A DNA stretch of 64,000 bases from IMG/VR virus record IMGVR_UViG_3300046370_000603. One strand, written 5' to 3'. The notes beneath the pieces are model-generated. The model saw only the letters and a program-made list of their open reading frames with translations. It ran no database searches and had not been told where the DNA came from. Source of the stretch: a virus. The first letter of the stretch is position 1. The number at the start of each line of letters is the position of its first letter. A program made the translations under genes and the position numbers. Shown piece by piece: positions 26,824-58,176 of the stretch.

Positions 26824-27257
26824 AAAAAGAAATTAAAATTGTATTAATAGATTTAGATAAAACACTGTGGAGATTTGACAGTTGGAATCAAGGTGTAGTC
26901 TCCGAAGAAAAACTTAGAAATTTTTTATTCCCAGAAGCTCTAGAGGCTATAGAATTAATTAAAAATAAAGGTTACAAGATAGGTATAGCATCTGCCAGCC
27001 CTTCGTCAACAATTTGTCATATTTATTTAGATAAATTATTTCCAAAAGATTATTTTGATATAATAATTATTCACCCTACATACCCATATAAAACTTATCA
27101 CTTTAATCAAGTTGTAGAAAAATTTGGTTATAGTTATAATAATATATTAATGATTGATGATTTAGAACCTATTATCGAGAACGCTAAAGCTTTAGGGGTT
27201 CAAACAATTCACGCAAAATCAGGATTATCAAAAAACTCTATAATTGACTTATTGTAA
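26820..27257 (+). CDS. HAD-superfamily phosphatase (MDP-1-like)
   Basis: DLDKTLW motif I, IAS motif II, K..H, IDD motif IV. Confidence 0.75.
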   Translation: MKKEIKIVLIDLDKTLWRFDSWNQGVVSEEKLRNFLFPEALEAIELIKNKGYKIGIASASPSSTICHIYLDKLFPKDYFDIIIIHPTYPYKTYHFNQVVEKFGYSYNNILMIDDLEPIIENAKALGVQTIHAKSGLSKNSIIDLL

Positions 27258-39706: not shown

Positions 39707-40948
39707 ATGGCAACAGACAGAGTAATATATCAAAGTGAATCTCTTTACACTAGTAAGCTTAAAGGAAGCGGAGCTGGTGAATTAATCAATGATAGTGATT
39801 TGAAAGAGATTAATAGAGTGCAGGATATGAGTTATAATCTAGAAGTAACTCGTACTGACATTAATGAATTTGGACAGCTTGCTGCTCTTTCAAGAGAAGT
39901 TACAGAACCTCCTACAGTTGGATTAGATTTTTCTTACTATCTCACAGATGGAACTCAAGAAAAAAATCTAGGATTCAATGTAAACGACGCAAGTCAGTTT
40001 ACTTTCACGAGCGCTGTACCCATGACTAAACAGCTTTTAGATGGATCAAACGATTTTGATGAACTTAACTATTATGTTGTCACCGTACCAGAAGGAGAAG
40101 ATGTTCACGGACAAAGTCCAGTAGCTGCCTCAGATCATGGAGTTATTGGAATTGGTAATGGATTTATTACAAGTTATGGAATTTCTGCAGCTGTTGGAGA
40201 ATTAGCTACTGCTAGTGTTTCTGTAGAAGCTTCTAATATTATGTTTAAAAATGGATTAAACGCAGCATTTGACAACCCAGCTGTAGATGTTTCATCGGCT
40301 ACAGGAGCTAGACTCACTAATCAAGTAGATTTCGCCAGCGTGACATCCAGCGATGGAGACATTCAAGTTGACAGCGAAGAACTTTTTGCTATTAGACCTG
40401 GAGACATCTTTATTGACTTTGATGCTAAAGGATATTTTAATGCAAATGAAGCTGGTAAATTAAATGTTGGAGGAGCTGTTCTTCCAGGAGTTAATGAAAC
40501 CACATCAAAAAGCGCTATCCACGTTCAAAACATATCGCTTGATGTACCTGTTGCAAGAAGTCCTCTTAACAGACTTGGCAGCTTGTACCCATTTAAAAGA
40601 AAAGTTGACTTTCCTGTTAACATGACCTTGAGTGTTTCAGCTCTTATGACTGAATTTTCTGAAGGCAGCCTTGATGGATTACTCTGCGGTAGCGAGCAAA
40701 AACGAGATATCGCAATCGTATTAAACACAAGATGCGGAAAGAAAAACGCTTTGGTTTATGTTATGAGAAACGCTATTCTTGACACTCAATCATTCTCGGC
40801 TTCGATTGGAGATAACAAAACTGTAGACTTGACATTCTCCTCTCAAGTTGGAGGAGCTAATGATTCCGACAACGGTATTTTCCTTATCGGAGAAGCAGCT
40901 AATAAAGTTGGCTTCGATAGCGGTATTCCTACAACTCCTACAATATAA
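39707..40948 (+). CDS. Major tail (tube) protein
   Basis: RVQ..SY.....R.DINEFG and a second R..L..LG repeat (two tube-like domains); followed by terminator. Confidence 0.7.
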   Translation: MATDRVIYQSESLYTSKLKGSGAGELINDSDLKEINRVQDMSYNLEVTRTDINEFGQLAALSREVTEPPTVGLDFSYYLTDGTQEKNLGFNVNDASQFTFTSAVPMTKQLLDGSNDFDELNYYVVTVPEGEDVHGQSPVAASDHGVIGIGNGFITSYGISAAVGELATASVSVEASNIMFKNGLNAAFDNPAVDVSSATGARLTNQVDFASVTSSDGDIQVDSEELFAIRPGDIFIDFDAKGYFNANEAGKLNVGGAVLPGVNETTSKSAIHVQNISLDVPVARSPLNRLGSLYPFKRKVDFPVNMTLSVSALMTEFSEGSLDGLLCGSEQKRDIAIVLNTRCGKKNALVYVMRNAILDTQSFSASIGDNKTVDLTFSSQVGGANDSDNGIFLIGEAANKVGFDSGIPTTPTI

Positions 40949-41366: not shown

Positions 41367-42074
41367 ATGGCAAAAATAAACCACGATAAGAAAGCTCTCT
41401 TCTTTCACGTTCCTAAAAATGCAGGAACATCTTTAAGTGTATTTTTAAATTCTCAAGGGTGGGAAAATGTAAGATATTCTCCAATTGATGGAGAGAGAGA
41501 TGATGTTGCCCCTAGTTTTAGTTACGCGAGGGGATGTTGTCAAAGAATTAAACATAACTTTAAATTAATTGCTAAAAAAAATATCGTAGCAAGCTTGGCA
41601 GACTCCAAGCCTATTTATATTGATATAATCAATGATAATGAAAAAAAATGCTACAAAAACATTAATCAAAATACATGGAAAGACTATTTCAAATTTGCAT
41701 TTACTAGAAACCCTTGGGATAGGGTAGTATCTGCTTGGAAAAACCGATCAAGTATTGAAAAGTTTGAAGATTTTGTAAATGTTTTACCAGCTCCCAAGAA
41801 TAAGATTGATCTATGTTGGCATACTATGCCTCAGTATGATCATCTTTTTGATGAAGATGATAATCTTATGGTCGATAAGTTATATCGAGTGGAAAATTTA
41901 CAAGATGATTTAAAAGAAATTTGTGATCAATTTCAATTAAATTACACAACTATCGGAAAAATAAATTCATCAAAAAGGAAACCGTATTGGGAATACTACA
42001 CTGATGAAATGGCGGAAAAAATATCAATAATATACAAAAATGATATTGAAAAATTTAACTACAAATATAGGTAA
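41367..42074 (+). CDS. Sulfotransferase (Sulfotransfer_2-like)
   Basis: PAPS-binding FFHVPKNAGTS and FAFTRNPWDRVVSAW; H..PQ, ENL..DL, Y..D...F.Y. Confidence 0.85.
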   Translation: MAKINHDKKALFFHVPKNAGTSLSVFLNSQGWENVRYSPIDGERDDVAPSFSYARGCCQRIKHNFKLIAKKNIVASLADSKPIYIDIINDNEKKCYKNINQNTWKDYFKFAFTRNPWDRVVSAWKNRSSIEKFEDFVNVLPAPKNKIDLCWHTMPQYDHLFDEDDNLMVDKLYRVENLQDDLKEICDQFQLNYTTIGKINSSKRKPYWEYYTDEMAEKISIIYKNDIEKFNYKYR

Positions 42075-42082
42075 AAGGAATT

Positions 42083-42934
42083 ATGAATATTACAGAAAAA
42101 AACACATTATACTCATTCTCAATTGATTTAAATAAAGAAGTTGAGGAAGAGGTTGAAAAAAAGTCAAAAAGAAAAAACAAGGAGACTGGAAAAATGGAAG
42201 TTATTACATCCAAAGAAAAAGTAACAGTCAAAAAAGATGTTCCATATAAAATTGTGATCAAAAAACCTAATCGAAGCGAACTCGAAGAAGGTGACATGTT
42301 TTACAGTTTGGAACTTAATAAATTTATAAAAATGGGCATGCTTACAAAAGCCATGCTAGCAAAACAATACGGAAACCAAGGCGGAGTTTGGTCAGAAAAA
42401 GAGCAGAAATTGTATTCTGAATTGTTGTATAAAATGCACAGCAAGCAATTAGAGGTTCAGCAGTTTTCTATTTTAGGAGATAATGGCAAACTATCAGAAA
42501 GGCAACAAGCTAAGCTTGAGCAAGCTGTTAGAGAGATGTCTGAGATAAAAAAAGACTTAACAGAATATGAAATGGTTCAAAATTCTTTGTTTGATCATAC
42601 TGCAGATGTCAAGGCTAGAAATAGAGCTATCATGTGGTACATTCTGCATTTAACTTATTTCGTTGAAGGTGATGCAGATGACGCGCCATTTGAAAACATG
42701 TTTGAAGGAGATTCTTTTAAAGAAAAATATGAATCTTACGAACAGTCAGAAGAAGAAGGTGATGAGTTATATCAAAAAATTATCGATAAGGTATCTTCTA
42801 TTGTGACTATTTGGTACGTAAGTGGAACTCAAGGTCAAGAAGGTTTAGATGATATTTTTAACGAAATGAAACAACAAAATCAAGACGAGGATGAACTTGT
42901 TGAGCCCACGGAAGAAGTGGAGGAGCCCGCTTAA
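42083..42934 (+). CDS. Tail assembly chaperone (putative)
   Basis: Between tail tube and tape measure. Confidence 0.5.
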   Translation: MNITEKNTLYSFSIDLNKEVEEEVEKKSKRKNKETGKMEVITSKEKVTVKKDVPYKIVIKKPNRSELEEGDMFYSLELNKFIKMGMLTKAMLAKQYGNQGGVWSEKEQKLYSELLYKMHSKQLEVQQFSILGDNGKLSERQQAKLEQAVREMSEIKKDLTEYEMVQNSLFDHTADVKARNRAIMWYILHLTYFVEGDADDAPFENMFEGDSFKEKYESYEQSEEEGDELYQKIIDKVSSIVTIWYVSGTQGQEGLDDIFNEMKQQNQDEDELVEPTEEVEEPA

Positions 42935-42943
42935 TCATGGTTC

Positions 42944-43933
42944 ATGAACGAAAAAGATTTAGATAATTTATTCGTAGAGATTAAGAGAGGCTTTTCTGTT
43001 TTAAAATTCCAGGAAAGCCTTTTTTATGTAAAGCACCCAGGAATAAAAGAAATTGAACTACTCAATAAGGATAGAGCCAATCTCTTATTGAAAGCTAAAA
43101 AAAAAGGTATACCAACAGAAGAAGAGCTTTTTCAAACATTGAATGAAACTGAACAATGGACAAGCGAAGATGAAAAAAAATTATCAAACAATCTATTAGA
43201 AGTCAAGAATCTTGAGCAAACCATGATGAATCTAATGAAAGATTCTGAAAAAGCTCCTCTTCAAAGCAGGCTTGATGAAATTAAAAATGAAACCCAAGAG
43301 CTGCAAAGCATAAGGAGTAGTCTTATTAGAATAAGTGCTGAAAAATACGCAAACAAAAAAAGTAATGAAAATTTTCTTCAAAAATCTTTATACAAAGATT
43401 CTGAATGCATGCAACATCATTGGACAGAAGATGAGTTTAATGAAATAGATATTATAACTATACAAAATTTATATGATTCTTACAATAAACTCATGGAAAA
43501 ATTTAGTGATAAAAACATTCAGCAAATATCTATATCAGGAATTTTTAAAAGTTTATTAAATCTTTATGATAAAAATATATCTAATTTTTTTAAAAAACAT
43601 CCTTTGGATTTAAGTTATTATCAAATTAATTTATTAAATTATGGAAAAATGTTTACAACCATTTTTGAAAATAAAGAAATCCCAGAAGATATATCAAATG
43701 ATGCTGAAAAAATAATAAAGTATTTAGAAGAATCAAAAATAAAGAAAAAGAAAGCTCAAAGAGTTTTAGATAAATCAAACAGTTCTGATGGATTTTCATA
43801 TGTTGGAGCAACGCGTAAAGACTTAGATAGTATGGGGGTCAAGAAACAAGGAGGGAAAGACATTCATAGCCTAGCTGCAGACAAGGGCGGGGAATTGAGT
43901 ATGGAAGATTTCATGAAGATCCATAAGAAATGA
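42944..43933 (+). CDS. Tail assembly chaperone (putative)
   Basis: Directly upstream of tape measure. Confidence 0.5.
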   Translation: MNEKDLDNLFVEIKRGFSVLKFQESLFYVKHPGIKEIELLNKDRANLLLKAKKKGIPTEEELFQTLNETEQWTSEDEKKLSNNLLEVKNLEQTMMNLMKDSEKAPLQSRLDEIKNETQELQSIRSSLIRISAEKYANKKSNENFLQKSLYKDSECMQHHWTEDEFNEIDIITIQNLYDSYNKLMEKFSDKNIQQISISGIFKSLLNLYDKNISNFFKKHPLDLSYYQINLLNYGKMFTTIFENKEIPEDISNDAEKIIKYLEESKIKKKKAQRVLDKSNSSDGFSYVGATRKDLDSMGVKKQGGKDIHSLAADKGGELSMEDFMKIHKK

Positions 43934-43962: not shown

Positions 43963-46900
43963 ATGAGTGTTGTAAACATACCTACAGCTGCTACAGGTTA
44001 TAGGCAGAGTATTATTAGAGACGCGCAAGGAGCTCAGCGCGTAGTTAATCGTATGCAAATGTCTCCAACCCTAAACCCATCTGGAATCATTCAGCCTTTG
44101 GGTAGAATAACTAATTCAGCAAGCGAATTTCAAAAATCAATGGATGCATCTGCAGCCCGTGTTTTTGCTTTTGGCGCCGCAGTGGGTGTTATTAATGGGG
44201 TTAGTGAAGCTTTTAGGGCGATGATAGCAGCTACAGCAGAAGTTGAAAAATCTCTGAAAGATATTCAGGTTGTAATGGAAGCTTCAAACAGTGCTATGCA
44301 AAAATTTGGAGATGGATTATTTGATGTAGCCAGAAATACTGCCACGTCTTTCAAGGATGTAGCTGAGTCAGCCACGGAACTGGCTAGGCAAGGTTTAAGT
44401 GCAGAAGAAACGTTAGCCAGGGTAAATTCAGCCTTAATACTTAGCAGGCTTTCTGGCCTAGATGCTGTCAAATCTACAGAGACTTTAACAGCGGCAATCA
44501 ACTCTTTTAATAAAGAGGGTATAACTCATTCAGAAATTGTAAATAGAATGGCTAATGTTGACGCTGCATTTGCGGTATCTTCAGCTGATTTAGCAGAAGC
44601 GATCTCAAGAGCTGGAGCTGTTGCGCAATCTTCTGGAGTTTCTTTTAATCAGTTAGCAGCTGTAGTTACTGCAGTGCAGCAAAGAACTGCCAGAGGCGGA
44701 TCTGTAATAGGTAATGGATTTAAGAGTATTTTTACTAGAATAAAAAGGAGTGGTGTTCGAGAGGCTTTAGAGGAAATAGGAGTTGCTACTAAAAACAACG
44801 ACGGAAGCTTTAGGGACTCAATGTCTGTTATTTTGGATTATGCAGATGTATATAAAAATTTGAGCGATAGCCAAAAAGCTTACACAGCGGAACAATTAGC
44901 TGGAGTTTATCAAATACAAAATTTACAAGCATTAATCCAAGATCTGAATAGTGGATATTCAATATATAATAAAGCTTTAGGAGTCGCTAATAATACAACA
45001 AACGAAGCAATTCAAAGAAATAAAGACTTAAATACAACTCTATCCGCAATGTTTACGCAAACTCAACTAAGCGCTAAAGAATTAGCTTCCTCTTTAGGTG
45101 AATTGGCGCTATCAGGAAACTTTAAAGAAATATTAACTTTTTTAAATAACTTAGCTCAAAAACTGAATGATCTTTTATCTGAGGATGGAGGCAATAATTT
45201 AGCTAAAAATTTAGTGCGAGGCATTGGTAGTTTTTTAACTGGCCCTGGGATGGTAATACTTGGAGCAGCTTTCCTTAAGATTTTTGGATTAGTTACGAAA
45301 TTTGCTAAAGAAGCTTTTTCCGACATCTTAGGTTTAAATAAAGAATCTAAAAGGCAGCAAAGCCTACAAGCTGCAATAGGGCAAGTATTGAGCACCAACT
45401 CTGGAATTTACCAAAAAATATTGGCTGCTGGAAGTAATACCGCAAAACAAGAGCAGATAATACTGAATTTAATAAGGCAAGAAACAGCTGAAAGAATCAA
45501 GCAAGAAGCTCTGATAAAAAGAATTGCAGCTAGTTCGCGATTGGTTGGTATAGGTGCGTCAGAATCTGGATTTGTACCAATGGGCAAAAAAACAGCTCAA
45601 GCAAGAGGCCGAAAAGTTTTAGGCATGTCAAATGGGTTTTTACCCGCTTTTAACAGAGAGCAAAGAGATATAAATACTGGAGTAGGCGGAGCAAGAAAAT
45701 CAGATAAACCTGTCTTACTTAAAAACCATAAAATGGGCGGCGGTAAAGTTAATGATGTTGTAGCTCATACTGGTGAATGGACTGTTAGGAATTTTAAAGG
45801 CTCGGGGGGTACAGCTATTTTTAATAGAGACATGGCATCAGCTTATGGACTGCCTTCTGGTGCAAAAAAAATTAATGCATCTAGCGGATTTATCCCGAAT
45901 TTTGCAAAATTTACCAACGAAAGCCATACAATGACATCCGCCCAACTAGGAGGGTCTCAATCTGGCAAGGGGCCAATATCTAGACTTTCAGATGTGATTG
46001 ATAGTTTCACTGGAAAAATAAAAGTCGCTAAAATGGATTTTACCAATAAAGACTTAGGTAAAAATGCAACAGATATTGTCAGAGGAAATAAGGCGCAAAA
46101 CATACCTGGATTGATAGAGTCCGACCCAAAAGCTTTAAGAGCTGGGAGAACTAAATATAGAGTTAATAAAAAAGCAGTTGGAATGCTTAATAAAAGATAC
46201 GGGAATTTAGTAAAAGATGGTCCTTATGCTGGTATAGTTACAACGGCGAAAAGCATTAGCGAGAGCAAATATAACAATTATAAAACATCACAAGGTCAGC
46301 CTGATCAAATAAAAGATTATTTTAAAAGTGTTACTGGACTTCTAAAGGGTGTTGAAGGAGAGCATCAAAGTATTAAATATTTAGCTAATAGCGGTTTGAA
46401 AAATGTTAAACCTATACAAGGGGCAGGAAGTTTTGATTTATCCGCAAAAAACTCAAAGGGCAAAAAAGCAAAAATGTTTGAAGTTAAGGCTAAAGAAAAA
46501 CAAAACGTGGTGGTTGGACTAAAAAAAGCTGCAGATCAATATTTAAAATTAAAAGCAATTACTCAAAAAAACTCAGGGCAAGACCCGATTGGCATCAAAA
46601 ACGGAAGACCAGATAAAATAAATTTAACTTCAGGCAACGCATTGTTTGCTGGGGGCATTAATATGTTAACAGCTGCAGATACAAAACTTTCAGCTAATAA
46701 AATCAGTCCTCTTTCAGAAGAAAATAAAAAATTCAAACAAGAAGAGGTTTTCAAACAAATAAAAAGTTTTACAAATTTAGATTTTAAAGACAGGCAAGCT
46801 TTATATAAAGATAAAACTAATGAAGAAATTTGGTCAAAAGCCAGAAAAGCTCTAGAAGATAAACCCAAAGATCAATTAAATTTTTACCTCAGAAGTTTGC

Positions 46901-49900
46901 AGAATAAGAACTCAGAGGAGTCTGAAGTTGTAAAAAATTATTTAAAGAATTTAATAAAGAAAAAAGAAGATCGAAACTCTAAAGCTCATTCTTTGTTTTT
47001 AGATCCTAATTATAATATTCCACCTGGAGGAATAAGAAACGCTGTAAGCGGATTTGTGCCTAATTTTATGGTCAAGAGACCTGGCATGGGTAAGAGTGGG
47101 TCAGTTTATTCTATACAAAGAGGAAAAGATAGAGTTCTGAACGTGTCTCATATAAGAGCTAATGAAGGTGAGTTTGGGTCAACTATATATAGAAACTTAA
47201 TTAATGAAATAGTTAATGCGGCAAAATCAGGAAATCCTTATACTAAAATTGATGCAGGCTCTATTATTGGACCAAGAATACCAAGAGCTTTATTAGCTGC
47301 AAAAAAAATACTAGACCGAAAAAGAATTACTCAAAATATACCAAAGTTAGAACTAGAAGGAGTTCTTGTCCCCAAACAATTAAGGCGCAGAGTTGAGGAG
47401 TTTAGGCAAAATAATTATACTCGTAGTGGCGGAAAGTTTAATACTGAAGATTCGGTTGAATATTTGCCAGGAGAAGAATCAAAGCTTATAGATTCATTAA
47501 GAAGAATTGGGTTAGGTAGAAACGCTCACAAAAGAAAAAACCTTGTAAGGTTGGAAAACTTGCCAATTGGTAAAAACTTTTCTGACGGATTTATTCCTAA
47601 TTTTGCAAAAAACGCTTTATCTGAAGCTATTAATAGAGAAAGAGAAGCTGGAGTACCTCAATCAAGAATTAGGGTAGAAAGAAGTGCTGATTTAGTATCA
47701 AAACATAACCCAATGGGATTAGCAGTAACTAATACCAGAGATGAACCACTTGGTTTAAATCAAGGTATCAGAAGAGCAAAGATGGAAGGTGTTAATCCCA
47801 AAACTTATGGATCAGGTAGAAATACAACTCCAAATTTTGCAGCGGGAGTCCAAACCACCAAAGGATTTTTTACCACACAAAGAATTAATAGATTAAAAGA
47901 TGGTGATTTTGCCAAGGATAGCAGCGGAAATAAAGTCTATTTAAATATGTTTTCGCCTGATGATCAAAAGAAAATATTGGGCTTTAAAGCTACACATTCA
48001 AAGGAAAATATAGCTAAAGCAAAACAAGTCTCTAGAGATAAAAAAAATAAAACACCTCTGATTGACGCATCTACTCAAGCAACAATGCTTGTAGCAACAA
48101 ATAATTTAAGAAGAAGAGTAGATACGAAATTCAAAACTGACAAAGGTGACGTAAGATTAAAGTATAGAGTTGAAGGGTTAAAACCAGGAGCCCTTAAAAA
48201 TACCGAGGGGAAAATAAGAGACAGAATTGGTGACTTAATGCTAAAGGAGTCTACCTTTTTAGCGAAAGAAATGTCTGGAGCTGGAAAATTCGGTATGAAT
48301 GTTCCGAATGTTACTAGAATGGCAAATGCAGGTAGCATAGGATCTGCCGCTGGATCAATTTTTGAAACAGCCTTGCAGACTGTAGGGAAAAATAAATTAT
48401 TTACAAGAAACAATGCTAGCTTCGATATAGCTGGTGCACCTGATGAAAAATTACAAAAACTTTTTGGATATTACACTCCTTATGCTGATGCAAAAATAGG
48501 TTTAAACCCAGATACAAAAAGAGATTTTAATCAAAAAGTTTTAAAAATTCCTCAAAATGCGGTTCAGTTATCCAAAACTCAAAAAACTAAACAAGCTGAA
48601 GTCTCTAGGGCTACTAGAAAAAGCTATGGACCGCTTACAAGAGCAACAGTAGGTTATATCCCTAATTTTGCAAAACTAACTAAAAGACAGAAACAAGATT
48701 TTGTCAATTCTGGTTTTGCAAAAAATCACAGAGAAGCGAATGCTAAATATAATTTTAGGGATCATCATTACTTAATAGAGAAAAAACTATCTAATAAAGA
48801 ATGGTTGAAGCAGAAAGCGTTTGATCGTGACTATGCAAAAATGACTGGTGTTACAAAAAGAAATACAGCGTATTACGGAACTTATCCAGGATCACAGCGG
48901 GATTACCCAGTTCAACAATCAAGGGCTGTAGCGAGAAACGCTAATGTAGGAGCGAGAGGCGCTGCAATGTCAACTGGAATAGTTAATCAGTTAAATAGCA
49001 CGGTTCAAGGCTTAGTTAGTAGAGTATCTAATATCGAAAAACAATTAAATATAGAAAATCTATCTAATGGTTATATACCAAATTTTGCTAAAAAAGAATC
49101 GTTTAAGCAAAAACAAGCAAGACTACGTAAAGCTGTGAAAAACAACCCTAATGATAAGGGAGCTAAAGAAGCTTTACAAAAGGCTGAGGCCACAAGACGT
49201 GGTAATATAAAACAAAACCAAAAAGACAATCAAGAAAGTAAAGATTCTAAAAGAACAAAAGGTTCCACTTACAGCACAGATTATAATAAAAAATCTCAAG
49301 ATCCGTCAGTTTCCAACCAAGACAAACTTAGAGAAATTATGAGATCTGCTCCAGCTGAAAGTATATCGCAAGTAGAAGTCGAAGAGTTTGAAAGAAATAA
49401 AAAAGCTAAAAATTATATTCCTACGGAAGGTGAAATCACTAGAATCTCAAATCGTGTCGAAAGTGTTTCAAGCGCAAACACCGCTACAAAACTTTCGCAA
49501 GCTGTTGCTCAAGCCCAAATCCCTAAAGGAGAGGCTAAAGAGATTATCAAGGCTGTAAATGTTGCTACTGATGGAGATTTTAAAAAATTGAAAAATCCAG
49601 AAGTGGCGAGGGGGGTACAAAACCAATTATCGAAAATTGAAGATAGAATAACTATTGTTAACCGAGCTCAATCCACAATTCAAGAAATAAGAAAATTAGT
49701 ACAAGAAGCTAGTGCTCAGAAAATTGATTCAACTAAAAATGGGTGGAAAAACTTTGTAAAGCAGATTGACGCTAAAGCAAGCATGAAAAAACTACTTGAA
49801 AAATCTCAAGATTTTATCATGAAAGGAGCTGGAAGTGGAAAGAATCCCTATATATCCGCGATACAGCGGCAAAAAAGATATTTAAAAAAATATAAATATA

Positions 49901-52900
49901 AAAGAGAGCCTGATAATTCATTTCAAAGATTTGGAAATGAAATCAAAAAAAGTGCAGAGAGAAGATATGCAGAAATAATGGGCATCAAACGAGAGGTAGT
50001 AAATCCATTTAAATCTATATATAAAGGTGGCACTTCATTCTTGGATTCAGCAGGAGCAAAAGCATTTAAAGGAGTATCAAAAGGATTAAAATTCATAGGC
50101 AGTGCGGGTAAAAGTATCGGTGGTCCATCTGCAAAATATTTAAAAGAAAGTATATCAGGCGTACCTGTTATGATTGGTAATGATCAAGTACATCTCAAGC
50201 GAGAAGACGCTAAAACTTTTAAAATTAAAAACAGCAATATAAAAGCTGATTTCGCTGCCACCCAGGAAGATTTGATGGATTTATTAAGAGGTAGAAAAGC
50301 TGGTAGTAACGATGATGTTTTTGAGCTGGAAAAAAAATTAGATAGAATAAAAATTCAAAAACAAGCAATTGACGATTTTTACAAAAAATATTCTAAAAAA
50401 ATTGTACCACAAAAAAAATCTAGAACATTTAACACTAAATCTAGATTCGGACGAAGAAGATTTGCTGGAGGTTTTATTCCAAACTTTAGTAAGCTAGCAA
50501 ACTTAATACTCGCTCACAATAAAAAAGTTCAAGCGTCTAAACCTTTAGGCGATAAAGAATACTCAAGTTTAAGTGGTAGGATAGCTGATTTCAATAAAAG
50601 AGTTCAGGGCTCAGGTAAAAGCTCAATGAAGAATAGGCCTATAACTTCTTTGGACAGAAAACAGCCTTTCAAGATTAGCAGAAGAAATAGACTAGAGGAC
50701 CTAGATAATGTAAAAAGATTCGTAAACTCGGATGAGTTCAAGATGTTAGATAAAAACTTACAAAGTAAACTTTTATTATATTACAACAAACGGAAATCTG
50801 AAATTGCATCACTGAAGGATTTAGATCCTCAATACCTTAGGCATTCTAGCGATCCAATGTATCAAGGAAAAATTGCAAACAGGAGTTCTGGTTTTGTTCC
50901 TAACTTTAGTAAGTTGGCGAATTTAATACTGACGCACAATAAAAAAGTTCAAGCGTCTAAACCTTTAGGCGATAAAGAATACTCAAGTTTAAGTGGTAGG
51001 ATAGCTGATTTCAATAAAAGAGTTCAGGGCTCAGGTAAAAGCTCAATGAAGAATAGGCCTATAACTTCTTTGGACAGAAAACAGCCTTTCAAGATTAGCA
51101 GAAGAAATAGACTAGAGGACCTAGATAATGTAAAAAGATTTATGAACTCGGATGAGTTCAAGATGTTAGATAAAAACTTACAAAGTAAACTTTTATTATA
51201 TTACAACAAACGGAAATCTGAAATTGCATCACTGAAGGATTTAGATCCTCAATACCTTAGGTATTCTAGCGATCCAATGTATCAAGGAAAAATTGCTAAT
51301 TACGGAAATGGATTTATGCCAAATTTTGCGCTAGATCAGGCTATAGCTAGAGAATCCGAGGCTTTAAAGAAAAGGGGGGTTTCTTCAAATAAAATAAAAG
51401 TAGAAAAAAGTTCATATTTAAAAAGTGCAATGAATCCCATGGGCCTTGCTGTAACGAATGCAGTCGATGAGCCGATGGGTGTTCAGCAAGGAATCAATAG
51501 AGTAAAAAAACAAGGGTTAAATCCAAAAACTTACGGTGTACCTTCATTCGCTTTATCTGCAGAAGAAAAAAGGTTAGAAAAAGAAAAAGCTGACTTCAAA
51601 TTAGAGCAAGAAAGTAAACGAGGTAGATTTTTAGGTAGATCACAATTTTTGAATCCTTACGCTGGGCTGGATGATGATGAAGCTTTTAAACTTAAAAAAG
51701 ATCAAGAGGCATATAAGGAAAAAACAAAAGGCACTAAAGGTATCAAAAGGTATATGCAGCACGGCATGTCTCCAGAAGGTCAAAGAAGAATGTCTGTAGT
51801 GGGAGGCAAAATGGGTAACGCTGCAATGGGAGCTATGTTTATGGGGCCAATGGCTGCAGAAATGATTCGAGATGGAAGAGAAGATGCTGCTATAGGCGGA
51901 GGAGGAAGAATGGGTATGGATGTAATGAATTCAGCGGCACTAGGAGCTGCTTTTGGACCTTGGGGCATGGCGCTTGGAGCTGGTTATGGAGTTGGAAAAG
52001 GTATAACAGAATTTGGTCAAAGAGATAAGCAAGCTAATACCTTCAAAGCTTTAGAGGGAGCTAAAAAGAAGCTTGATGAAATCATGAGTGATACTTCCAG
52101 TATGCAAAGTTTTGCTCAGGGAGTTCAAGAGTTGCATGTTGCTACTCAATCAGGTGATTCAAAAGGTATTGTTGCAGCAAATAAACAAATCAGGCAATCT
52201 ATTAATAATATAGCCGACCCAGAGGTTAGAAAGAGAATGCAGTCGCTTGCAAAATCAAGCATGAGCTCTTCAAAAAAATTAGAGTTGCTAGGTGCAGCAA
52301 TTGGTAACATGGGCGAAGAAGCTGAAAAAAGATCTGGCATGCTTGCAGCTGGGAAAAGTGCAAATGACGAAAGATTTGCTGGAGCTAATGGGTTTCAAGA
52401 TAGTTGGTTCGGAACTGGGGTTCAGGGAACAGTTGCTGGAGCAAAAACAGCGTTTGATTTTTTAACAGGGGGTGGGAATACTTTCGATTACAACATGAAA
52501 ACTTTAGGCGGAGAAGATGCTTTTCAAGGAAATCTTGGAGCAGCTAAAGACCAAGCAAGGTCATTAAACCAAGCCTTTAAAGCAGAAGCTAAAAGAATGG
52601 CTAGAGAAAACTTATACACAGATTTATCGAAAGGTAGGGGTCCGATAGCCGCTCCAGAACTCGTAGGAAAAACTAGTGAAGAAATTGAGCTCATGCGACA
52701 AAATGATGTAGGGTTAGACGCAAAATTAAGCCAAGAGCAGGATATAGCGTATGCACAATTGTATAAAGATACAATAAAGCAGTTTATGAATAATAAAAAA
52801 TTATCTGATACAGATATAGGAAAAAACTTAAAACAGCTTCCTGGCGGCGAAGAAAGTTTCGAAAATTTTGATCGACAAACTACATTTGAGGATGGTAGTT

Positions 52901-54564
52901 TGGCAACGTTTGGAGGGGCAATATTAAAAGAATTTGCCGACACAGCTTTAGATGCAAAAGATGGGCTGGAAGGACATAGTGAAGCTATAAAAGCAGCTAT
53001 TGAGACTCAACAAAAAATTGTAAACCTCGAACAAAAATTATTGTCTGAATATCAAAATATGCTTCAAGCTCAACAAAATGTTAATCAAATGATGAGTAGG
53101 TTTGCGACCAATCAAGACATTGGAAGTTATAGACAACAAACAGATTCTATGGTAAGAACAAAAGCTAATGATTATTTAACTGATAGAAATTATATTGATC
53201 CAAGGCAATATATTGCTAGAGATGCAGGAAATCAGAAACGCGACATTATTGCGGAAGGTGAATCAGGAATGCGTCAAGAGTTCATGAATTTGATTGCAGG
53301 AATTGATGTGACTAAAATGTTCAACCCAAGCGGTACTCAAAAAAAAGAGATGGGTATCAAGGATCCTGTTCCAACCAGTGGAACTGGGGCATTTCAACAA
53401 AAAGTTGACCAACGAGAATCTCAAGCAGACCAACAATTAGCAAGAGCATTAGCTGATTTTGCGGCTCAAAATAAAGACGGAAATGTAACTTTAAATGAGA
53501 TGAGAGGATTTTTGAGCAAGATTGACAGAACGGGGCAGGCAGGAAATAGAATAGCTAGCGCAGCTAAAGATATAGAAAATGCTACAAGTCAGAAGATGAT
53601 TGCTCAACTAGAAAGACTTGCAGTAACAACTATGATCAGAGAGGGGGAAGCAGCTTCTGGAAGATTACAACAACAAGGAGGAAAAAGATTAGGGGATGGA
53701 GAAATAAAAGCTGGAGTAGACGCTGCGGTAGAAAGTGATAAAGATATTCTTGATCTCGTTAATAATTATATGAGTCAAGGTTCTTTGCCTGGAGATAGTA
53801 TCATAGCAGGTGCAGCAGATAGTATAGATGCCTTTAGGCAATTGGCTGCAGTAATGGGCGTAAGCTCAACTCTATTTACTGGACTTAATGATGATACATC
53901 AAATTATTTAACAGCTTTAGCGGATGTTAATGGGATGATGGAGCAGTTGGAAAATTTTGATCCTCAAAAAGCATCCGAATTAAAACCTGTTTTTGAAAAA
54001 ATTAAATCTAGCTTAGATGCAGATTATAAAACTACTCAAATTGTGGCTGAAGAATTAAAAAGAATGGCTGGTGAAGGAGGAGTGGATCCAAATTTAGTAA
54101 AAGATCCTATAAAAGCTCTTACTGTACAACTAGGAAATTTATGGGGACAGGGATTAAAAATCACTAACTTGCAAGAGCTTACAACTCCATTAACACAATT
54201 ATTAACTAATCAAGACGGCAATGGCGATGGCTCAGGTTCCCCTATAACCCCGTCAGGTGCACCCGTAGGAACAAGCGATGACGGTACACCAAAAGGAACT
54301 GAGGGCACAGAAGTAGATTTTTCCTCTGCGATAAAAGCTTTAGAGGAATTACCTGGTCAAATAAGCTCGCAATTAAGTGAGTTGGTTATTAATCATGAAG
54401 TTACTGGCGGAATAACTTTTGACTTCAATTCAGATGTTGTGCAAGGAGTCTTAACTCCAGTCATGAGAGATCAATTAAAAAGTATTTTGCAGGAAGGAGT
54501 TATATTAGATTATCTTGCCACAGCGTTAAAGAAAAAAGTTGACCCTCAAGGAGTTTTAGAATAA
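43963..54564 (+). CDS. Tape measure protein (TP901-type core) with modular central insert
   Basis: N-terminal ELARQG...V....A.S.ADLAEAISRAG...RGGSVIGNGFKSIFTR core; 3533 aa; G[FY]xPNF-bounded modules. Confidence 0.9.
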   Translation: MSVVNIPTAATGYRQSIIRDAQGAQRVVNRMQMSPTLNPSGIIQPLGRITNSASEFQKSMDASAARVFAFGAAVGVINGVSEAFRAMIAATAEVEKSLKDIQVVMEASNSAMQKFGDGLFDVARNTATSFKDVAESATELARQGLSAEETLARVNSALILSRLSGLDAVKSTETLTAAINSFNKEGITHSEIVNRMANVDAAFAVSSADLAEAISRAGAVAQSSGVSFNQLAAVVTAVQQRTARGGSVIGNGFKSIFTRIKRSGVREALEEIGVATKNNDGSFRDSMSVILDYADVYKNLSDSQKAYTAEQLAGVYQIQNLQALIQDLNSGYSIYNKALGVANNTTNEAIQRNKDLNTTLSAMFTQTQLSAKELASSLGELALSGNFKEILTFLNNLAQKLNDLLSEDGGNNLAKNLVRGIGSFLTGPGMVILGAAFLKIFGLVTKFAKEAFSDILGLNKESKRQQSLQAAIGQVLSTNSGIYQKILAAGSNTAKQEQIILNLIRQETAERIKQEALIKRIAASSRLVGIGASESGFVPMGKKTAQARGRKVLGMSNGFLPAFNREQRDINTGVGGARKSDKPVLLKNHKMGGGKVNDVVAHTGEWTVRNFKGSGGTAIFNRDMASAYGLPSGAKKINASSGFIPNFAKFTNESHTMTSAQLGGSQSGKGPISRLSDVIDSFTGKIKVAKMDFTNKDLGKNATDIVRGNKAQNIPGLIESDPKALRAGRTKYRVNKKAVGMLNKRYGNLVKDGPYAGIVTTAKSISESKYNNYKTSQGQPDQIKDYFKSVTGLLKGVEGEHQSIKYLANSGLKNVKPIQGAGSFDLSAKNSKGKKAKMFEVKAKEKQNVVVGLKKAADQYLKLKAITQKNSGQDPIGIKNGRPDKINLTSGNALFAGGINMLTAADTKLSANKISPLSEENKKFKQEEVFKQIKSFTNLDFKDRQALYKDKTNEEIWSKARKALEDKPKDQLNFYLRSLQNKNSEESEVVKNYLKNLIKKKEDRNSKAHSLFLDPNYNIPPGGIRNAVSGFVPNFMVKRPGMGKSGSVYSIQRGKDRVLNVSHIRANEGEFGSTIYRNLINEIVNAAKSGNPYTKIDAGSIIGPRIPRALLAAKKILDRKRITQNIPKLELEGVLVPKQLRRRVEEFRQNNYTRSGGKFNTEDSVEYLPGEESKLIDSLRRIGLGRNAHKRKNLVRLENLPIGKNFSDGFIPNFAKNALSEAINREREAGVPQSRIRVERSADLVSKHNPMGLAVTNTRDEPLGLNQGIRRAKMEGVNPKTYGSGRNTTPNFAAGVQTTKGFFTTQRINRLKDGDFAKDSSGNKVYLNMFSPDDQKKILGFKATHSKENIAKAKQVSRDKKNKTPLIDASTQATMLVATNNLRRRVDTKFKTDKGDVRLKYRVEGLKPGALKNTEGKIRDRIGDLMLKESTFLAKEMSGAGKFGMNVPNVTRMANAGSIGSAAGSIFETALQTVGKNKLFTRNNASFDIAGAPDEKLQKLFGYYTPYADAKIGLNPDTKRDFNQKVLKIPQNAVQLSKTQKTKQAEVSRATRKSYGPLTRATVGYIPNFAKLTKRQKQDFVNSGFAKNHREANAKYNFRDHHYLIEKKLSNKEWLKQKAFDRDYAKMTGVTKRNTAYYGTYPGSQRDYPVQQSRAVARNANVGARGAAMSTGIVNQLNSTVQGLVSRVSNIEKQLNIENLSNGYIPNFAKKESFKQKQARLRKAVKNNPNDKGAKEALQKAEATRRGNIKQNQKDNQESKDSKRTKGSTYSTDYNKKSQDPSVSNQDKLREIMRSAPAESISQVEVEEFERNKKAKNYIPTEGEITRISNRVESVSSANTATKLSQAVAQAQIPKGEAKEIIKAVNVATDGDFKKLKNPEVARGVQNQLSKIEDRITIVNRAQSTIQEIRKLVQEASAQKIDSTKNGWKNFVKQIDAKASMKKLLEKSQDFIMKGAGSGKNPYISAIQRQKRYLKKYKYKREPDNSFQRFGNEIKKSAERRYAEIMGIKREVVNPFKSIYKGGTSFLDSAGAKAFKGVSKGLKFIGSAGKSIGGPSAKYLKESISGVPVMIGNDQVHLKREDAKTFKIKNSNIKADFAATQEDLMDLLRGRKAGSNDDVFELEKKLDRIKIQKQAIDDFYKKYSKKIVPQKKSRTFNTKSRFGRRRFAGGFIPNFSKLANLILAHNKKVQASKPLGDKEYSSLSGRIADFNKRVQGSGKSSMKNRPITSLDRKQPFKISRRNRLEDLDNVKRFVNSDEFKMLDKNLQSKLLLYYNKRKSEIASLKDLDPQYLRHSSDPMYQGKIANRSSGFVPNFSKLANLILTHNKKVQASKPLGDKEYSSLSGRIADFNKRVQGSGKSSMKNRPITSLDRKQPFKISRRNRLEDLDNVKRFMNSDEFKMLDKNLQSKLLLYYNKRKSEIASLKDLDPQYLRYSSDPMYQGKIANYGNGFMPNFALDQAIARESEALKKRGVSSNKIKVEKSSYLKSAMNPMGLAVTNAVDEPMGVQQGINRVKKQGLNPKTYGVPSFALSAEEKRLEKEKADFKLEQESKRGRFLGRSQFLNPYAGLDDDEAFKLKKDQEAYKEKTKGTKGIKRYMQHGMSPEGQRRMSVVGGKMGNAAMGAMFMGPMAAEMIRDGREDAAIGGGGRMGMDVMNSAALGAAFGPWGMALGAGYGVGKGITEFGQRDKQANTFKALEGAKKKLDEIMSDTSSMQSFAQGVQELHVATQSGDSKGIVAANKQIRQSINNIADPEVRKRMQSLAKSSMSSSKKLELLGAAIGNMGEEAEKRSGMLAAGKSANDERFAGANGFQDSWFGTGVQGTVAGAKTAFDFLTGGGNTFDYNMKTLGGEDAFQGNLGAAKDQARSLNQAFKAEAKRMARENLYTDLSKGRGPIAAPELVGKTSEEIELMRQNDVGLDAKLSQEQDIAYAQLYKDTIKQFMNNKKLSDTDIGKNLKQLPGGEESFENFDRQTTFEDGSLATFGGAILKEFADTALDAKDGLEGHSEAIKAAIETQQKIVNLEQKLLSEYQNMLQAQQNVNQMMSRFATNQDIGSYRQQTDSMVRTKANDYLTDRNYIDPRQYIARDAGNQKRDIIAEGESGMRQEFMNLIAGIDVTKMFNPSGTQKKEMGIKDPVPTSGTGAFQQKVDQRESQADQQLARALADFAAQNKDGNVTLNEMRGFLSKIDRTGQAGNRIASAAKDIENATSQKMIAQLERLAVTTMIREGEAASGRLQQQGGKRLGDGEIKAGVDAAVESDKDILDLVNNYMSQGSLPGDSIIAGAADSIDAFRQLAAVMGVSSTLFTGLNDDTSNYLTALADVNGMMEQLENFDPQKASELKPVFEKIKSSLDADYKTTQIVAEELKRMAGEGGVDPNLVKDPIKALTVQLGNLWGQGLKITNLQELTTPLTQLLTNQDGNGDGSGSPITPSGAPVGTSDDGTPKGTEGTEVDFSSAIKALEELPGQISSQLSELVINHEVTGGITFDFNSDVVQGVLTPVMRDQLKSILQEGVILDYLATALKKKVDPQGVLE
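50470..51309 (+). repeat. 420-bp direct tandem duplication inside tape measure
   Basis: 50470-50889 and 50890-51309 nearly identical; each starts at a GF(I/V)PNF codon run. Confidence 0.95.
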
Positions 54565-57500
54565 GTGAATTTTAATAATGTAGAAATTTTAGGAATTTCA
54601 TTCCAGAATAATAAATTTGATTCTGATTTAACTTTTAATCGGACTAAAACAATTAGTGTTTCTGGTTATTTATTAAGCTTATCTAATACAGAGGGCGTAA
54701 AAACTATACTACAAGAAACAAATGATATTATTGAGATTGAAAACAATTTAAATACTCAAGATGGATCAATAACTCATGGACTGCAAGAAATATTTATTAA
54801 CAGTGTAAGTTTTGGGGAGGGCTTGGTATCCAATTACTCTATAAAGGGAGATCAAATTCAAGACGCTAGATATACGGCGACAATAAATTTTATAGAATCA
54901 ATTGATATAGCCAACCTAAAACTTAGTGAAAATAAAAACAATAATTTAAGCTTTGGAGATTCAGATATTTCTGCAAATGATTTTAAATATTTACGGTCCA
55001 TAGATGAAGATTTTGATTTTAAAAATAATGGAGATGAAGTAGAGGTAAATCATTCAATTAATTGCTCTTTTTCAAGAAAGCAGTCCTTATTACCAAAAAG
55101 AAAAAACTTATGGCAGAACGCTAGTATTCAAACAAGTAAATTAATTAATTTAAGAAACAAAGGAAAAGGATCTGTAAAAGTTTTAGCGGGAAATACATCT
55201 ACTCAAAGTATAAATTTGGAAGCTGGAACTTATGTGCTAGAGTTTGAGTACCTTGGACAAAACTCAACATCTTCAGGAAATTGTACTGTTGATTGCTCGG
55301 GATCGTCTATAACCTTAAATACAAAAAAGGGGAACAAGAGGCTAGAATTTGAAGTTTCTTCAACTTCTTCTGTTAACATTAATTTAGTAGCAAATTCTAC
55401 TAGAGATACATTTTTTGATAATTTTTATTTATGTAATAAAACAGATCTTCCATTAGAAAAATCAAGGAGTCTCGCAAATTTTTTACTATCTTCAACCCCT
55501 GAATATCCAATTGTATTAGATAGTATATCAGATAAATATTCTGTAACTCAATTTTTTGATAATTTTGAAACTACAGAAAGTTTTGATCAGATAAATTTAA
55601 ATTATTCGATATCAAAAAAACTTACATTTGGAGATTTAGATTCCAGTAATAATTATTCAAATAAAAATACTTTAACAATTGAAATAAGCGAAGCAGGGAT
55701 TATTACAGTTACAGAAAAAAATGAAATAAAATGCTTGACCGAAAAAACTGACGCTAAAATTAAAAACTTTACAAGCATAGTAGAGGCTGCCTCGAGGGAC
55801 AGGTGTGTTAGCGCGCTAAGCTCGTATAATAACTATTATAAATCTGGATGCCCTACTCCAACAAGGACTCAGGTTATTGACGAAAATCAAATTTATGATA
55901 TAGAAGAAAGTAAAAGTTTAGTCTATAATTTTAAAAATGGAACATCTGAGTTGACCATGGTTTACTCGAATGACCCTCAAAATATAAAATCTACCGATAA
56001 GTATTATAAACTTCAAGATTCAGTTAATATAGAAAATACAGAAGGTTATCAATTATTGTCATTTAATGGATCTGCTAAAGGAAAAGGCGATGATTCAAAT
56101 ACAAGAAAATTAAACGGAAAACAAGCGCTGCTAGATTTTGATACCAATAAAGATGCCTTAATTAATCAAATAAAAACAGACCATAATCTGTCGGGCGAAT
56201 TTGTGGAGATAGGTCGAACCCTTTCAACAGAAGGGTTTTCTGGATCAATAACATATGGTTTAACTTTTAGTAATAAACCATCATATAGTGATATGCCTGA
56301 GTCCGTAAAGAGCTTAGTTAAGAAATATGAAATAGAAGTTGTGTCTGATGAAAGAGTTGGTTTATTTAATGAATTTGCGATTAATTGTAATGCTGTCGCT
56401 CAAGTCATGGGAGATTTATTTCAACCAAAAGCTTTAAATGTTAGTATATCAGTATTTGGGAAAAAGAATGTGGGAATTGTTGATTTAGTTAACGCATCTA
56501 AAGCTATATTAGTGCATAAAAATTTAATGTTTGGCTTAGGATCAGAAGGGTCAAAGCAAGATGTTGAAAATAATTATAATAAAGAAGAGTATACAGTAAA
56601 GGAAGATTTTTCCTACAACCAAGTAGAAGATAAAGTTCAATATAATAGATCAGTTTTAGACTTATCTGAATGCTTAGAGTCAGATAAAGGGGATGCGAAT
56701 CACGGGTGGATAGATTTAGGTAATGTACCAACCCCAACTCCTTTTGCTTCTTACGTATATAACGAAACTGAATTTGAATACTCCTACACACCGCCACCAG
56801 TAGAAGATTGGAACTACGACGAATATGGTTATAATTTTTCAACCCCAATACCTTTTCCAACTCCAACAGAAATAATTGATCCAACTCCAACTACTTACTA
56901 CGTACCTACGTTCACTCCAACAATAACAAAAACGCCAACTAATTTTCCGACGCCAATAATAACAACTCCAACCCCCACCCAGCAATTCGAAAATGTCGAA
57001 GTTTTTATTCCAGAAAACTGGAATAATAGCATTAATAGTTTAATGAGTATTAGTGACTATCAACTTTTATACGGAAAACAATGTTTTGATGATAGTGCGT
57101 CTATAACAGATTTAAACGAAAGATTAATTTCAAATTCCTATGCAAATAATAGTTCGGTTAAAGACTGCATCAGAGCTGGAAGTGGAGATAGGTGGTATAG
57201 TTTTATTTTTGCTATACCTACTGGATCTAATTTTACGCCACCACACTCAGATGATTGTGAGTTTTTTGAGGTAGAAGTGCCTGTTTTCTTTCAAGAAAGT
57301 ATAGAGTGTTTAATAAAATCAAAAACTGATGGATCATGCTTGGGGACTAATCAAAATTATGTAGGAGCAATGGTTAACCCTGGAACTTTTGAATACTCGT
57401 ATGAACAAGTAGATGTGAGTTCAAAAATAATAAATTCATCTTCAAATAATTCTTCGCACCCTTATTTTAATAATGGTATAGTTGTTACAGGTAGCACAGT

Positions 57501-58176
57501 TTTTAAAATATGCGGGAATGATAAAAATAATTTCAACAAAGCGAGTGAAAATTTTGTGACTCAAGAAATTTTAATTCCAACTGGATCAAGTTTAAATTTA
57601 GCCGAGCAAATAATTAGCGGTGTATCAGGTTGGAGCCCTGGAAAGTGTTATGAAATCATAGGTTATAAAAATTGCTCCTTACAGAATGAATTTAACAGAG
57701 GAGATAGAGTATTAAGCAAGAATCAGGTGTACGATAATTGCTCAGAATTTTCAGAAAATGAATTATTGTTCTCGGTAATAGTGAAAGAAATAAATTGTAA
57801 TCAAAATTCTCTAACAGTAAATTCTGTGATTGAATATCAAACACCGTTGACACCCAGCCCAACAGCATCTACAACTCCAACAACTTCACCAACAGCTTCA
57901 GCCACAACTAGTGCTACAACTAGCCCAACAACTAGCGCCACAACTAGCCCAACAACTAGCGCCACAACTAGCCCAACAACCAGTGCTACAGTAACTCCTA
58001 CGCCTGCGGGGGTAAATTGCTCTGGATGTGAGGCTCAATATGACGATTTCTTTGAAATGTATGCAACAAATTGTAACCTAGGTAGTTGCCCATGCTCATG
58101 TAGCATATTATTAACAGATGGTCCAAACTCTGGCCAGATGATGCCTTGTACAGACGATCTTTTCTCTGGTTGTTAA
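54565..58176 (+). CDS. Tail/baseplate protein with Thr/Pro-rich linkers and Cys-rich C-terminus
   Basis: Post-tape-measure position; GTG start; PTPT tracts. Confidence 0.65.
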   Translation: MNFNNVEILGISFQNNKFDSDLTFNRTKTISVSGYLLSLSNTEGVKTILQETNDIIEIENNLNTQDGSITHGLQEIFINSVSFGEGLVSNYSIKGDQIQDARYTATINFIESIDIANLKLSENKNNNLSFGDSDISANDFKYLRSIDEDFDFKNNGDEVEVNHSINCSFSRKQSLLPKRKNLWQNASIQTSKLINLRNKGKGSVKVLAGNTSTQSINLEAGTYVLEFEYLGQNSTSSGNCTVDCSGSSITLNTKKGNKRLEFEVSSTSSVNINLVANSTRDTFFDNFYLCNKTDLPLEKSRSLANFLLSSTPEYPIVLDSISDKYSVTQFFDNFETTESFDQINLNYSISKKLTFGDLDSSNNYSNKNTLTIEISEAGIITVTEKNEIKCLTEKTDAKIKNFTSIVEAASRDRCVSALSSYNNYYKSGCPTPTRTQVIDENQIYDIEESKSLVYNFKNGTSELTMVYSNDPQNIKSTDKYYKLQDSVNIENTEGYQLLSFNGSAKGKGDDSNTRKLNGKQALLDFDTNKDALINQIKTDHNLSGEFVEIGRTLSTEGFSGSITYGLTFSNKPSYSDMPESVKSLVKKYEIEVVSDERVGLFNEFAINCNAVAQVMGDLFQPKALNVSISVFGKKNVGIVDLVNASKAILVHKNLMFGLGSEGSKQDVENNYNKEEYTVKEDFSYNQVEDKVQYNRSVLDLSECLESDKGDANHGWIDLGNVPTPTPFASYVYNETEFEYSYTPPPVEDWNYDEYGYNFSTPIPFPTPTEIIDPTPTTYYVPTFTPTITKTPTNFPTPIITTPTPTQQFENVEVFIPENWNNSINSLMSISDYQLLYGKQCFDDSASITDLNERLISNSYANNSSVKDCIRAGSGDRWYSFIFAIPTGSNFTPPHSDDCEFFEVEVPVFFQESIECLIKSKTDGSCLGTNQNYVGAMVNPGTFEYSYEQVDVSSKIINSSSNNSSHPYFNNGIVVTGSTVFKICGNDKNNFNKASENFVTQEILIPTGSSLNLAEQIISGVSGWSPGKCYEIIGYKNCSLQNEFNRGDRVLSKNQVYDNCSEFSENELLFSVIVKEINCNQNSLTVNSVIEYQTPLTPSPTASTTPTTSPTASATTSATTSPTTSATTSPTTSATTSPTTSATVTPTPAGVNCSGCEAQYDDFFEMYATNCNLGSCPCSCSILLTDGPNSGQMMPCTDDLFSGC
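57901..57990 (+). repeat. 24-bp coding tandem repeat (TTSATTSP)
   Basis: GCCACAACTAGCCCAACAACTAGC repeated. Confidence 0.85.

Follow-up and report, generated by a model that had tools for sequence, protein, structure and literature searches.

A giant phage tape measure protein with an array of modules fenced by a conserved junction peptide

The common view of tape measure proteins (TMPs) is that they serve as ruler and channel of the phage tail and carry at most one wall-degrading domain. The TMP encoded at positions 43963–54564 (+ strand) of a 64,000-nucleotide stretch of viral DNA (IMG/VR record IMGVR_UViG_3300046370_000603; this whole stretch is called the window below) raises the question of why one short peptide, G[FY][IVM]PNF, returns again and again along its middle part. 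The middle of this TMP is a cassette array, in which folded basic modules follow one another like beads, each fenced on both sides by the junction peptide, and comparison with relatives shows that exchange, duplication, and loss of modules take place at the peptide, which bounds each unit. The explanation that we favor as a whole, with a rough probability of 0.45, combines the cassette array and its boundary peptide with nuclease-like modules and with processing at the peptide.

An array of modules separated by one peptide

The gene is a single open reading frame (ORF) of 3,533 stop-free codons and the longest of the tail genes, located 3′ of two genes in the chaperone position and 5′ of distal tail genes, as judged from gene order in the window and in a related locus, L161. 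Its N-terminal part contains the PhageMin_Tail domain of TP901-1-type TMPs (PF10145, 105 bits versus a cut-off of 33), and several TMP PHROGs match the first ~450 residues (down to 2e-48), in agreement with the TP901-type core that had been named in an earlier, sequence-only reading of this DNA. Ten modules, including the recurrent domain sm0 and both copies of the domain sm, are arranged in the order sm0 – [642–1029] – [1030–1208] – sm – C0 – [1564–1702] – [1703–2169] – [2170–2309] ×2 – sm, where numbers in brackets are residues of the TMP, and the protein ends with an acidic region of 1,007 residues. The segments between motifs are 77–467 aa long, all of them basic (pI 9.9–10.5), and mutually unrelated except for two pairs, namely the tandem pair 2170–2309 and 2310–2449 (97% identical) and the two sm copies at 1209–1289 and 2450–2526 (58% identical), so the earlier description of them as mostly unrelated and basic holds. 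Family-wide, the median pI is 9.7 in the motif zone versus 6.1 in the C-terminal part. In the relatives that were checked, a hydropathy scan detects hydrophobic segments shortly after the last sm; the present TMP has a Gly/Met-rich stretch at about aa 2620–2700, which was seen by eye and is not flagged by the same scan.

The exact motif occurs at aa 642, 1030, 1209, 1564, 1703, 2170, 2310, and 2450 (Gly codons at 45886, 47050, 47587, 48652, 49069, 50470, 50890, and 51310), that is, eight times, where 0.0002 copies would be expected by chance from the composition of the TMP. All eight had been located correctly from the letters alone, as had three degenerate copies, GFLPAF, TTPNF, and GVPSF (at 51535), with the small correction that the position formerly given for TTPNF, 47830, is that of its Pro codon and that its Thr codon is at 47824. 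A six-frame scan of the window finds the motif only inside the TMP ORF. Related loci totaling 2.7 Mb contain 761 copies within TMP ORFs and 9 elsewhere, most of the latter in ORFs just 5′ of the TMP and on the same strand, and these outside copies are probably for the most part TMP pieces split by frameshifts. Because of this location, a role for the motif as a tag of separately encoded cargo was rejected.

A logo built from 452 sites in 115 TMPs reads A-[AS]-x-G-[FY]-[IV]-P-N-F-A. In 401 sequences with ~1,300 sites altogether, conservation is 99.5% for G and P, 94% for N (S in 4%), and 86% for the last F (Y in 12%), and the consensus of the fence peptide is A-[AS]-x-G-[FY]-[IV]-P-N-[FY]-A. 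Codon usage at the six motif positions equals the background, save for an excess of CCT at Pro. As the motif codons vary synonymously, selection acts on the peptide, and the junction is maintained as protein, not as DNA; a DNA-level recombination site was rejected as the primary constraint on account of the same variation.

The position of the motif coincides with the limits of similarity between family members. When this TMP (P0001) was aligned with its relatives, 78% of the 650 ends of high-scoring segment pairs within residues 600–2560 fell at most 10 residues from a motif, versus 13% by chance. With P0002, it shares 74% identity at the N-terminus, and this identity continues through SGF[VI]PNF at aa 1030, is gone at the next residue, returns precisely with the motif that precedes aa 1209, and is lost again past the motif at aa 1703. 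In P0005, the block corresponding to aa 1290–1569 stands ahead of that corresponding to aa 1026–1215, which is the reverse of the order found here. Within the present gene, a 420-nt tandem duplication begins on the Gly codon at 50470 (Tandem Repeats Finder (TRF), period 420, 96% matches). Across the family, the motif-to-motif segments form 98–107 clusters, about half of which are singletons. Related TMPs, when aligned, differ by modules gained, lost, reordered, and duplicated, with breakpoints on the motif; homologues are not collinear, and the proposal of a recombination joint that serves a variable set of modules is thereby strongly supported. Judging from these alignments, hundreds of related phages swap, duplicate, or lose modules at the peptide, and the region is a hot spot in which unrelated modules are inserted after the same invariant peptide.

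The family was collected in several searches. The first, with residues 540–2560 as query, seeds on shared 5-mers and may therefore favor motif-bearing proteins; it returned 114 giant TP901-type TMPs of 2,000–5,756 aa, in 111 of which the motif is present in 1–13 copies. Later searches that reached the same family used queries that still include the motif. One with sm gave 69 IMG/VR loci, 7 contigs of metagenome-assembled genomes (MAGs), and 80 of 368 metagenome loci, with TARA ocean and lake samples among the sources. A profile of C0, the third of the recurrent modules, was compared without a word index with 1.84 billion cluster representatives and obtained 736 matches at E ≤1e-3 and 568 at E ≤1e-10; it spans both flanking motifs, and this search is thus not fully motif-independent either. 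Among the 150 C0 matches listed, the proteins are TMP-sized or apparent contig-edge fragments. Motif-bearing giant TMPs come from marine and freshwater metagenomes, and the carrier is a large uncultured aquatic phage lineage. The few MAG matches are spread over bins of at least five unrelated lineages, so that no host is assignable, and they are probably mis-binned phage contigs. Counted at 50% identity, the family has at least 568 clusters (E ≤1e-10); it is large and environmentally widespread, and its core has a nuclease-like appearance.

Some members are extremely long. The TMP of P0009 has 5,756 aa, and a stop-free frame of ~5,940 codons is found in L075 (1730–19549), on a contig binned as Neomarinimicrobiota. 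If fully helical, proteins of this size would correspond to tails of roughly 0.8 micrometre.

Core modules, orphan modules, and possible enzymes

The core of the family is sm0 – C0 – sm, of which sm0 and sm are related domains of ~80 residues. Of 203 full-length TMPs, 127 have sm0 as their first recognized module and 185 have sm as their last, and the commonest order is sm0 – C0 – sm. The present TMP has six modules beyond this core, and its extra modules lie between the sm0 and sm brackets. The sm domain, present in 185 of 188 TMPs, comprises ~80 aa with the motif at both ends, and its AlphaFold2 model (56-row alignment) shows an alpha-beta-beta-alpha core with a pLDDT of 77–83, while both motifs reach at most 51. 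No match to this fold was obtained with Foldseek against the PDB at E ≤0.001, and the best Z of VIA-align against 48,161 chains was 3.1. The sm0 domain is related to sm and differs from it by an insertion (profile–profile probability of 97%, partly driven by the shared motifs).

This kinship, together with the fact that sm and sm0 both start and finish with the motif, could be taken to mean that the motif is the edge of a repeated sm/sm0 domain and that the other modules were inserted between decayed sm copies. Such an origin is very improbable, however, given that unrelated modules bear the motif without any other sm-like sequence beside it and that the motifs lie outside the folded core in the sm model. 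In P0028, P0059, P0094, and P0096, an extra motif pair, ~90 aa apart, is located in the C-terminal 300 aa, far from the main zone, and suggests another sm/sm0-like domain.

The C0 module was modeled by AlphaFold2 (41-row alignment) as a mixed alpha/beta domain (pLDDT 79, pTM 0.66) with low-confidence motif ends. In the two modules modeled, sm and C0, the mixed alpha/beta structure agrees with the earlier observation that the segments are unlike a plain helical tape measure. C0 sequences drift to ~20% identity, and seven residues (named in Table 1) are kept in 96–99% of 197 domains; they include a set of catalytic type, E1468 (96%), D1488 (97%), D/E1509 (99%), and K1511 (99%), which follows the pattern E...D...(D/E)xK of the PD-(D/E)xK phosphodiesterases. 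A similar pattern is found in the module at 642–1029, in which G796, E800, D825, E840, K842, and K855 are each kept in at least 90% of 29 distinct homologues. When its profile is laid on the Hjc resolvase of Pyrococcus furiosus (1gef), its E, D, and ExK align exactly with the residues that we take to be the catalytic set of that enzyme. Despite the similar residues, hhalign finds no relation between this module and C0, and the view that the two are relatives was abandoned.

On balance, C0 and the module at 642–1029 are probably phosphodiesterases of the PD-(D/E)xK type, which would pass down the tail as part of the TMP and reach the cell envelope or the cytoplasm. Several points weigh against this assignment. 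It rests on a residue pattern that gains no confirmation from fold comparisons, and the match to Hjc, at an E of 1.5, is weak. For C0, Foldseek gives no match at E ≤0.001 against the PDB and BFVD, and VIA-align against 48,161 chains gives a best Z of 3.6, which is below significance; in its favor, six restriction enzymes of the PD-(D/E)xK superfamily, PspGI, BsoBI, Bse634I, Cfr10I, Ecl18kI, and SgrAI, are among the top 50 and superpose on the right part of the model, with Z values of 2.5–3.5 that are likewise below significance. Compared with PDB sequences, the C0 profile retrieves lectins only (E 0.02). Furthermore, C0 belongs to the fixed core of the family, and for this reason it may serve assembly or the handling of DNA ends instead of an attack on the host.

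Orphans make up the majority of the modules. Each of the ten segments of this TMP was compared with Pfam and PHROGs, and none gave anything above noise. Among 101 representatives of the modules of relatives, single members match PcfJ (3e-7), Ntox24 (1.2e-5), and GNAT, and weaker matches point to SNase, ParB_N, and Mu Gam-like proteins; by these similarities, some modules look enzymatic and directed at nucleic acids. Peptidoglycan hydrolase domains are also found in relatives, namely SLT, VanY, GH19 chitinase-like, or lysozyme domains in the C-terminal part of P0029, P0034, P0080, P0081, and P0087, where they lie downstream of the motif zone and are unfenced; the present TMP has none. The sequence-only reading had regarded the modules as a variable cargo of injected effectors. 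The two modules with nuclease-like catalytic sets and the single matches to Ntox24, PcfJ, and GNAT lend this some substance, but no fold or family assignment is significant, most modules are orphans, and the most conserved ones, sm0, C0, and sm, form a fixed family core and not a variable load.

The predominance of orphans without an enzyme signature would suit another account, according to which the peptide is a mere structural hinge or turn (G...P-N) that aids illegitimate or short-homology recombination, and the modules are a filler of the lumen or part of the ruler with no effector role. The low pLDDT of the motifs in both modeled modules is indeed linker-like, and the length of the TMP follows the number of motifs across the family (r 0.77). 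This account is nevertheless quite unlikely, as ten positions are conserved over ~1,300 sites, which is far beyond the need of a hinge, the codons are conserved no further than the peptide requires, and in two modules invariance is limited to residues of catalytic type, the remainder having drifted to ~20% identity.

What the junction peptide may do

Our first choice for the peptide itself, still a tentative one, is a role in proteolytic processing: the peptide would be cut during tail maturation or after ejection, in the manner of the single cut in T5 Pb2 that sets its enzyme domain apart, and the modules would act as separate units once cut. Each cassette carries its own copy of the peptide, and any module could therefore be swapped without breaking assembly. 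That the TMPs of T5 and lambda are cleaved during tail morphogenesis is well established, and in T5 Pb2 the cut takes place after R1127, between a hydrophobic stretch and the peptidase domain (PMC10038345). The Pb2 cut site reads NANSFVPR↓AEGG (the arrow marks the cut), and its FVP is the only F[IV]P in 1,219 residues. The likeness between the junction peptide and this mapped site favors cleavage somewhat. There is also a precedent for the union of such roles in one peptide, since the VENN motif of CdiA is a junction, a recombination point, and a precise cut site at once (PMC9424206).

Other results speak against processing. The likeness to the Pb2 site extends to 4 of 10 positions and no more, and gpH of lambda lacks any [FYL][IVL]P tripeptide. 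No peptidase family was recognized in the TMP, its modules, or ten neighboring genes; these neighbors are almost all orphans, so that a novel protease may be among them. None of 253 proteins presents a natural gene fission at the motif, and the short matches look like contig-edge fragments. Three junctions of this TMP, TTPNF, GVPSF, and GFLPAF, are degenerate. A more far-reaching version, in which the TMP is a true injected polyprotein that is cut at every fence, in tail maturation or upon ejection and by a mechanism like that of the Pb2 cut, and releases phage-specific nucleases and other effectors into the host, seems doubtful. If it were true, the tail lumen would be the route of a polymorphic-effector system in hundreds of aquatic phages, with reshuffling at the peptide.

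The main rival to processing is docking, in which the peptide would be a short linear signal that is bound by the products of two upstream genes or by the lumen of the tube, whose protein is encoded at 39707–40948, and the TMP would stay uncut. The partners would keep the non-helical modules soluble and thread any module into the tube. The restriction of the motif to the TMP, where it stands at every junction, accords with this, as does its disorder in the monomer models, a usual trait of short linear motifs, and the fact that it hardly varies in a very diverse family implies a conserved partner encoded by the phage. Candidates are the proteins encoded at 42083–42934 and 42944–43933, which are conserved in ~115 loci and are paralogues of one another (hhalign 96%, 144 columns), resembling a G/GT chaperone pair; the gpG/gpGT chaperones of lambda reportedly bind the TMP. 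Docking is rather unlikely all the same, because the upstream proteins match no known chaperone family and because it leaves the resemblance to the T5 cut site unexplained.

Whether the peptide is cut or docked, the architecture draws on kinds that are already known: TMPs with embedded domains, polyvalent virion proteins, and polymorphic-toxin junctions. With the TMPs of the TP901-1 family (PF10145), it has in common the N-terminal PhageMin_Tail core, the hydrophobic segment, and a gene placed between chaperone-position and distal tail genes. With Pb2 of T5, it shares an enzyme-like part that is set off from the ruler and a cut site, SFVPR↓A, that resembles the core of the junction. It differs from both in the number of motif-fenced modules, up to 14 in relatives and 10 in this TMP, and in that these modules are nuclease-like or orphan and not muralytic.

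In CdiA, the VENN junction is likewise a short conserved peptide that delimits variable modules and allows heterologous fusion and recombination (PMC9424206; PMC3482391), and it is in addition the precise cleavage point (PMC9424206). A conserved peptide at the point of module exchange, as in junctions of the polymorphic-toxin type, is found here, and the module of one relative matches the polymorphic-toxin domain Ntox24. However, CdiA has a single junction ahead of a C-terminal toxin, accompanied by an immunity gene, whereas here the junctions are serial and lie inside a virion protein, and no immunity genes came to notice, although no search aimed at them was made. Polyvalent proteins are also giant multi-domain proteins that are delivered with the invading DNA and are thought to be processed into units (Iyer et al., 2017; PMC5512222). 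They contain an MPTase or another peptidase domain and are mostly packaged in the head, whereas here the carrier is the TMP and the fence is a conserved peptide; no MPTase or other processing peptidase domain was detected with Pfam in this TMP and its modules. Tape measures are never mentioned in the survey of polyvalent proteins (PMC5512222). Sle1, as presented in its abstract, combines a TMP-like scaffold with an exchangeable functional domain inside a tail-like tube; it belongs to a contractile injection system (CIS) of actinobacteria and has a single C-terminal functional domain and no serial array, and the abstract makes no mention of a junction motif (PMC13277306). In the literature searched, GFIPNF had no full-text match, and reports on tape measures with nucleases, as polyproteins, or as modular proteins contained no description of a motif-fenced TMP.

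Should the peptide signal cutting or handling, phages would have in it a simple and portable rule for loading proteins into the tail of a siphophage. This would bear on phage counter-defence, on the processing of the T5 and lambda TMPs, and on engineered tail-borne cargo, and the length of the tail could not be read from the length of the TMP in these phages.

Coordinates and neighboring genes

Table 1. Features of the tape measure gene and of the two genes upstream of it (positions in the window)
Feature	Position	Strand	Basis or remark
Chaperone-position protein, 283 aa	42083..42934	+	Conserved in 115 related loci
Chaperone-position protein, 329 aa	42944..43933	+	Conserved in 118 related loci
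Tape measure protein gene, 3,533 aa	43963..54564	+	Single ORF; PF10145 and TMP PHROGs at N-terminus
TP901-type PhageMin_Tail core, aa 123–314	44329..44904	+	Pfam PF10145, E 4.8e-30
Hydrophobic segment, conserved, aa 417–449, 5′ of motif zone	45211..45309	+	Hydropathy scan; in every homologue checked
Degenerate junction GFLPAF	45634	+	Motif scan
sm0 bracket domain, aa 558–647, GFLPAF to first exact motif	45634..45903	+	sm0 HMM match
Module aa 642–1029	45886..47049	+	Invariant G796, E800, D825, E840-x-K842, K855
Module aa 1030–1208	47050..47586	+	At other positions in P0005, P0010, P0025, and others
sm copy 1, aa 1209–1289	47587..47829	+	sm HMM match
Degenerate junction TTPNF	47824..47838	+	Motif scan
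C0 module, aa 1290–1563	47830..48651	+	Invariant G1464, F1467, E1468, D1488, D/E1509, K1511, K1525
Module aa 1564–1702	48652..49068	+	Motif-bounded; few homologues
Module aa 1703–2169, Lys-rich orphan	49069..50469	+	Motif-bounded; part common to P0008 only
Tandem 140-aa module, two 420-nt copies	50470..51309	+	TRF; 97% protein identity
sm copy 2, aa 2450–2526, ends in degenerate GVPSF	51310..51549	+	sm HMM match; 58% identical to copy 1
Acidic C-terminal region, pI 5.1	51550..54561	+	Weakly conserved across family

The two upstream genes are in the same reading frame here, separated by one stop codon and 6 nt, and their equivalents in L161 overlap by 4 nt in different frames; they represent a gene duplication and not the frameshifted arrangement of G/GT. 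A database lookup with the product of ORF 42944–43933 returned only viral hypothetical proteins. Ahead of this pair, in the tail block, a sulfotransferase of family 2 (PF03567, E 4e-14) is encoded at 41367–42074 (+), between a 94-aa ORF and the chaperone-position genes, and the gene at the matching place in L161 is without a Pfam match. On the other side of the TMP gene, an ORF of 1,203 aa (54565–58176, +) follows without a gap, its GTG start directly adjoining the stop codon of the TMP; relatives of this ORF are present in only 10 fetched loci, and it is far less conserved than the genes 5′ of the TMP.

Most other structural genes of this phage lack any family match. The large terminase is encoded at 27257–29116 (+; phrog_2, 2e-24) and is followed by a run of orphan genes, and just 5′ of it, at 25894–26823 (+), lies a gene that matches an ERCC4-type nuclease PHROG (3e-11).

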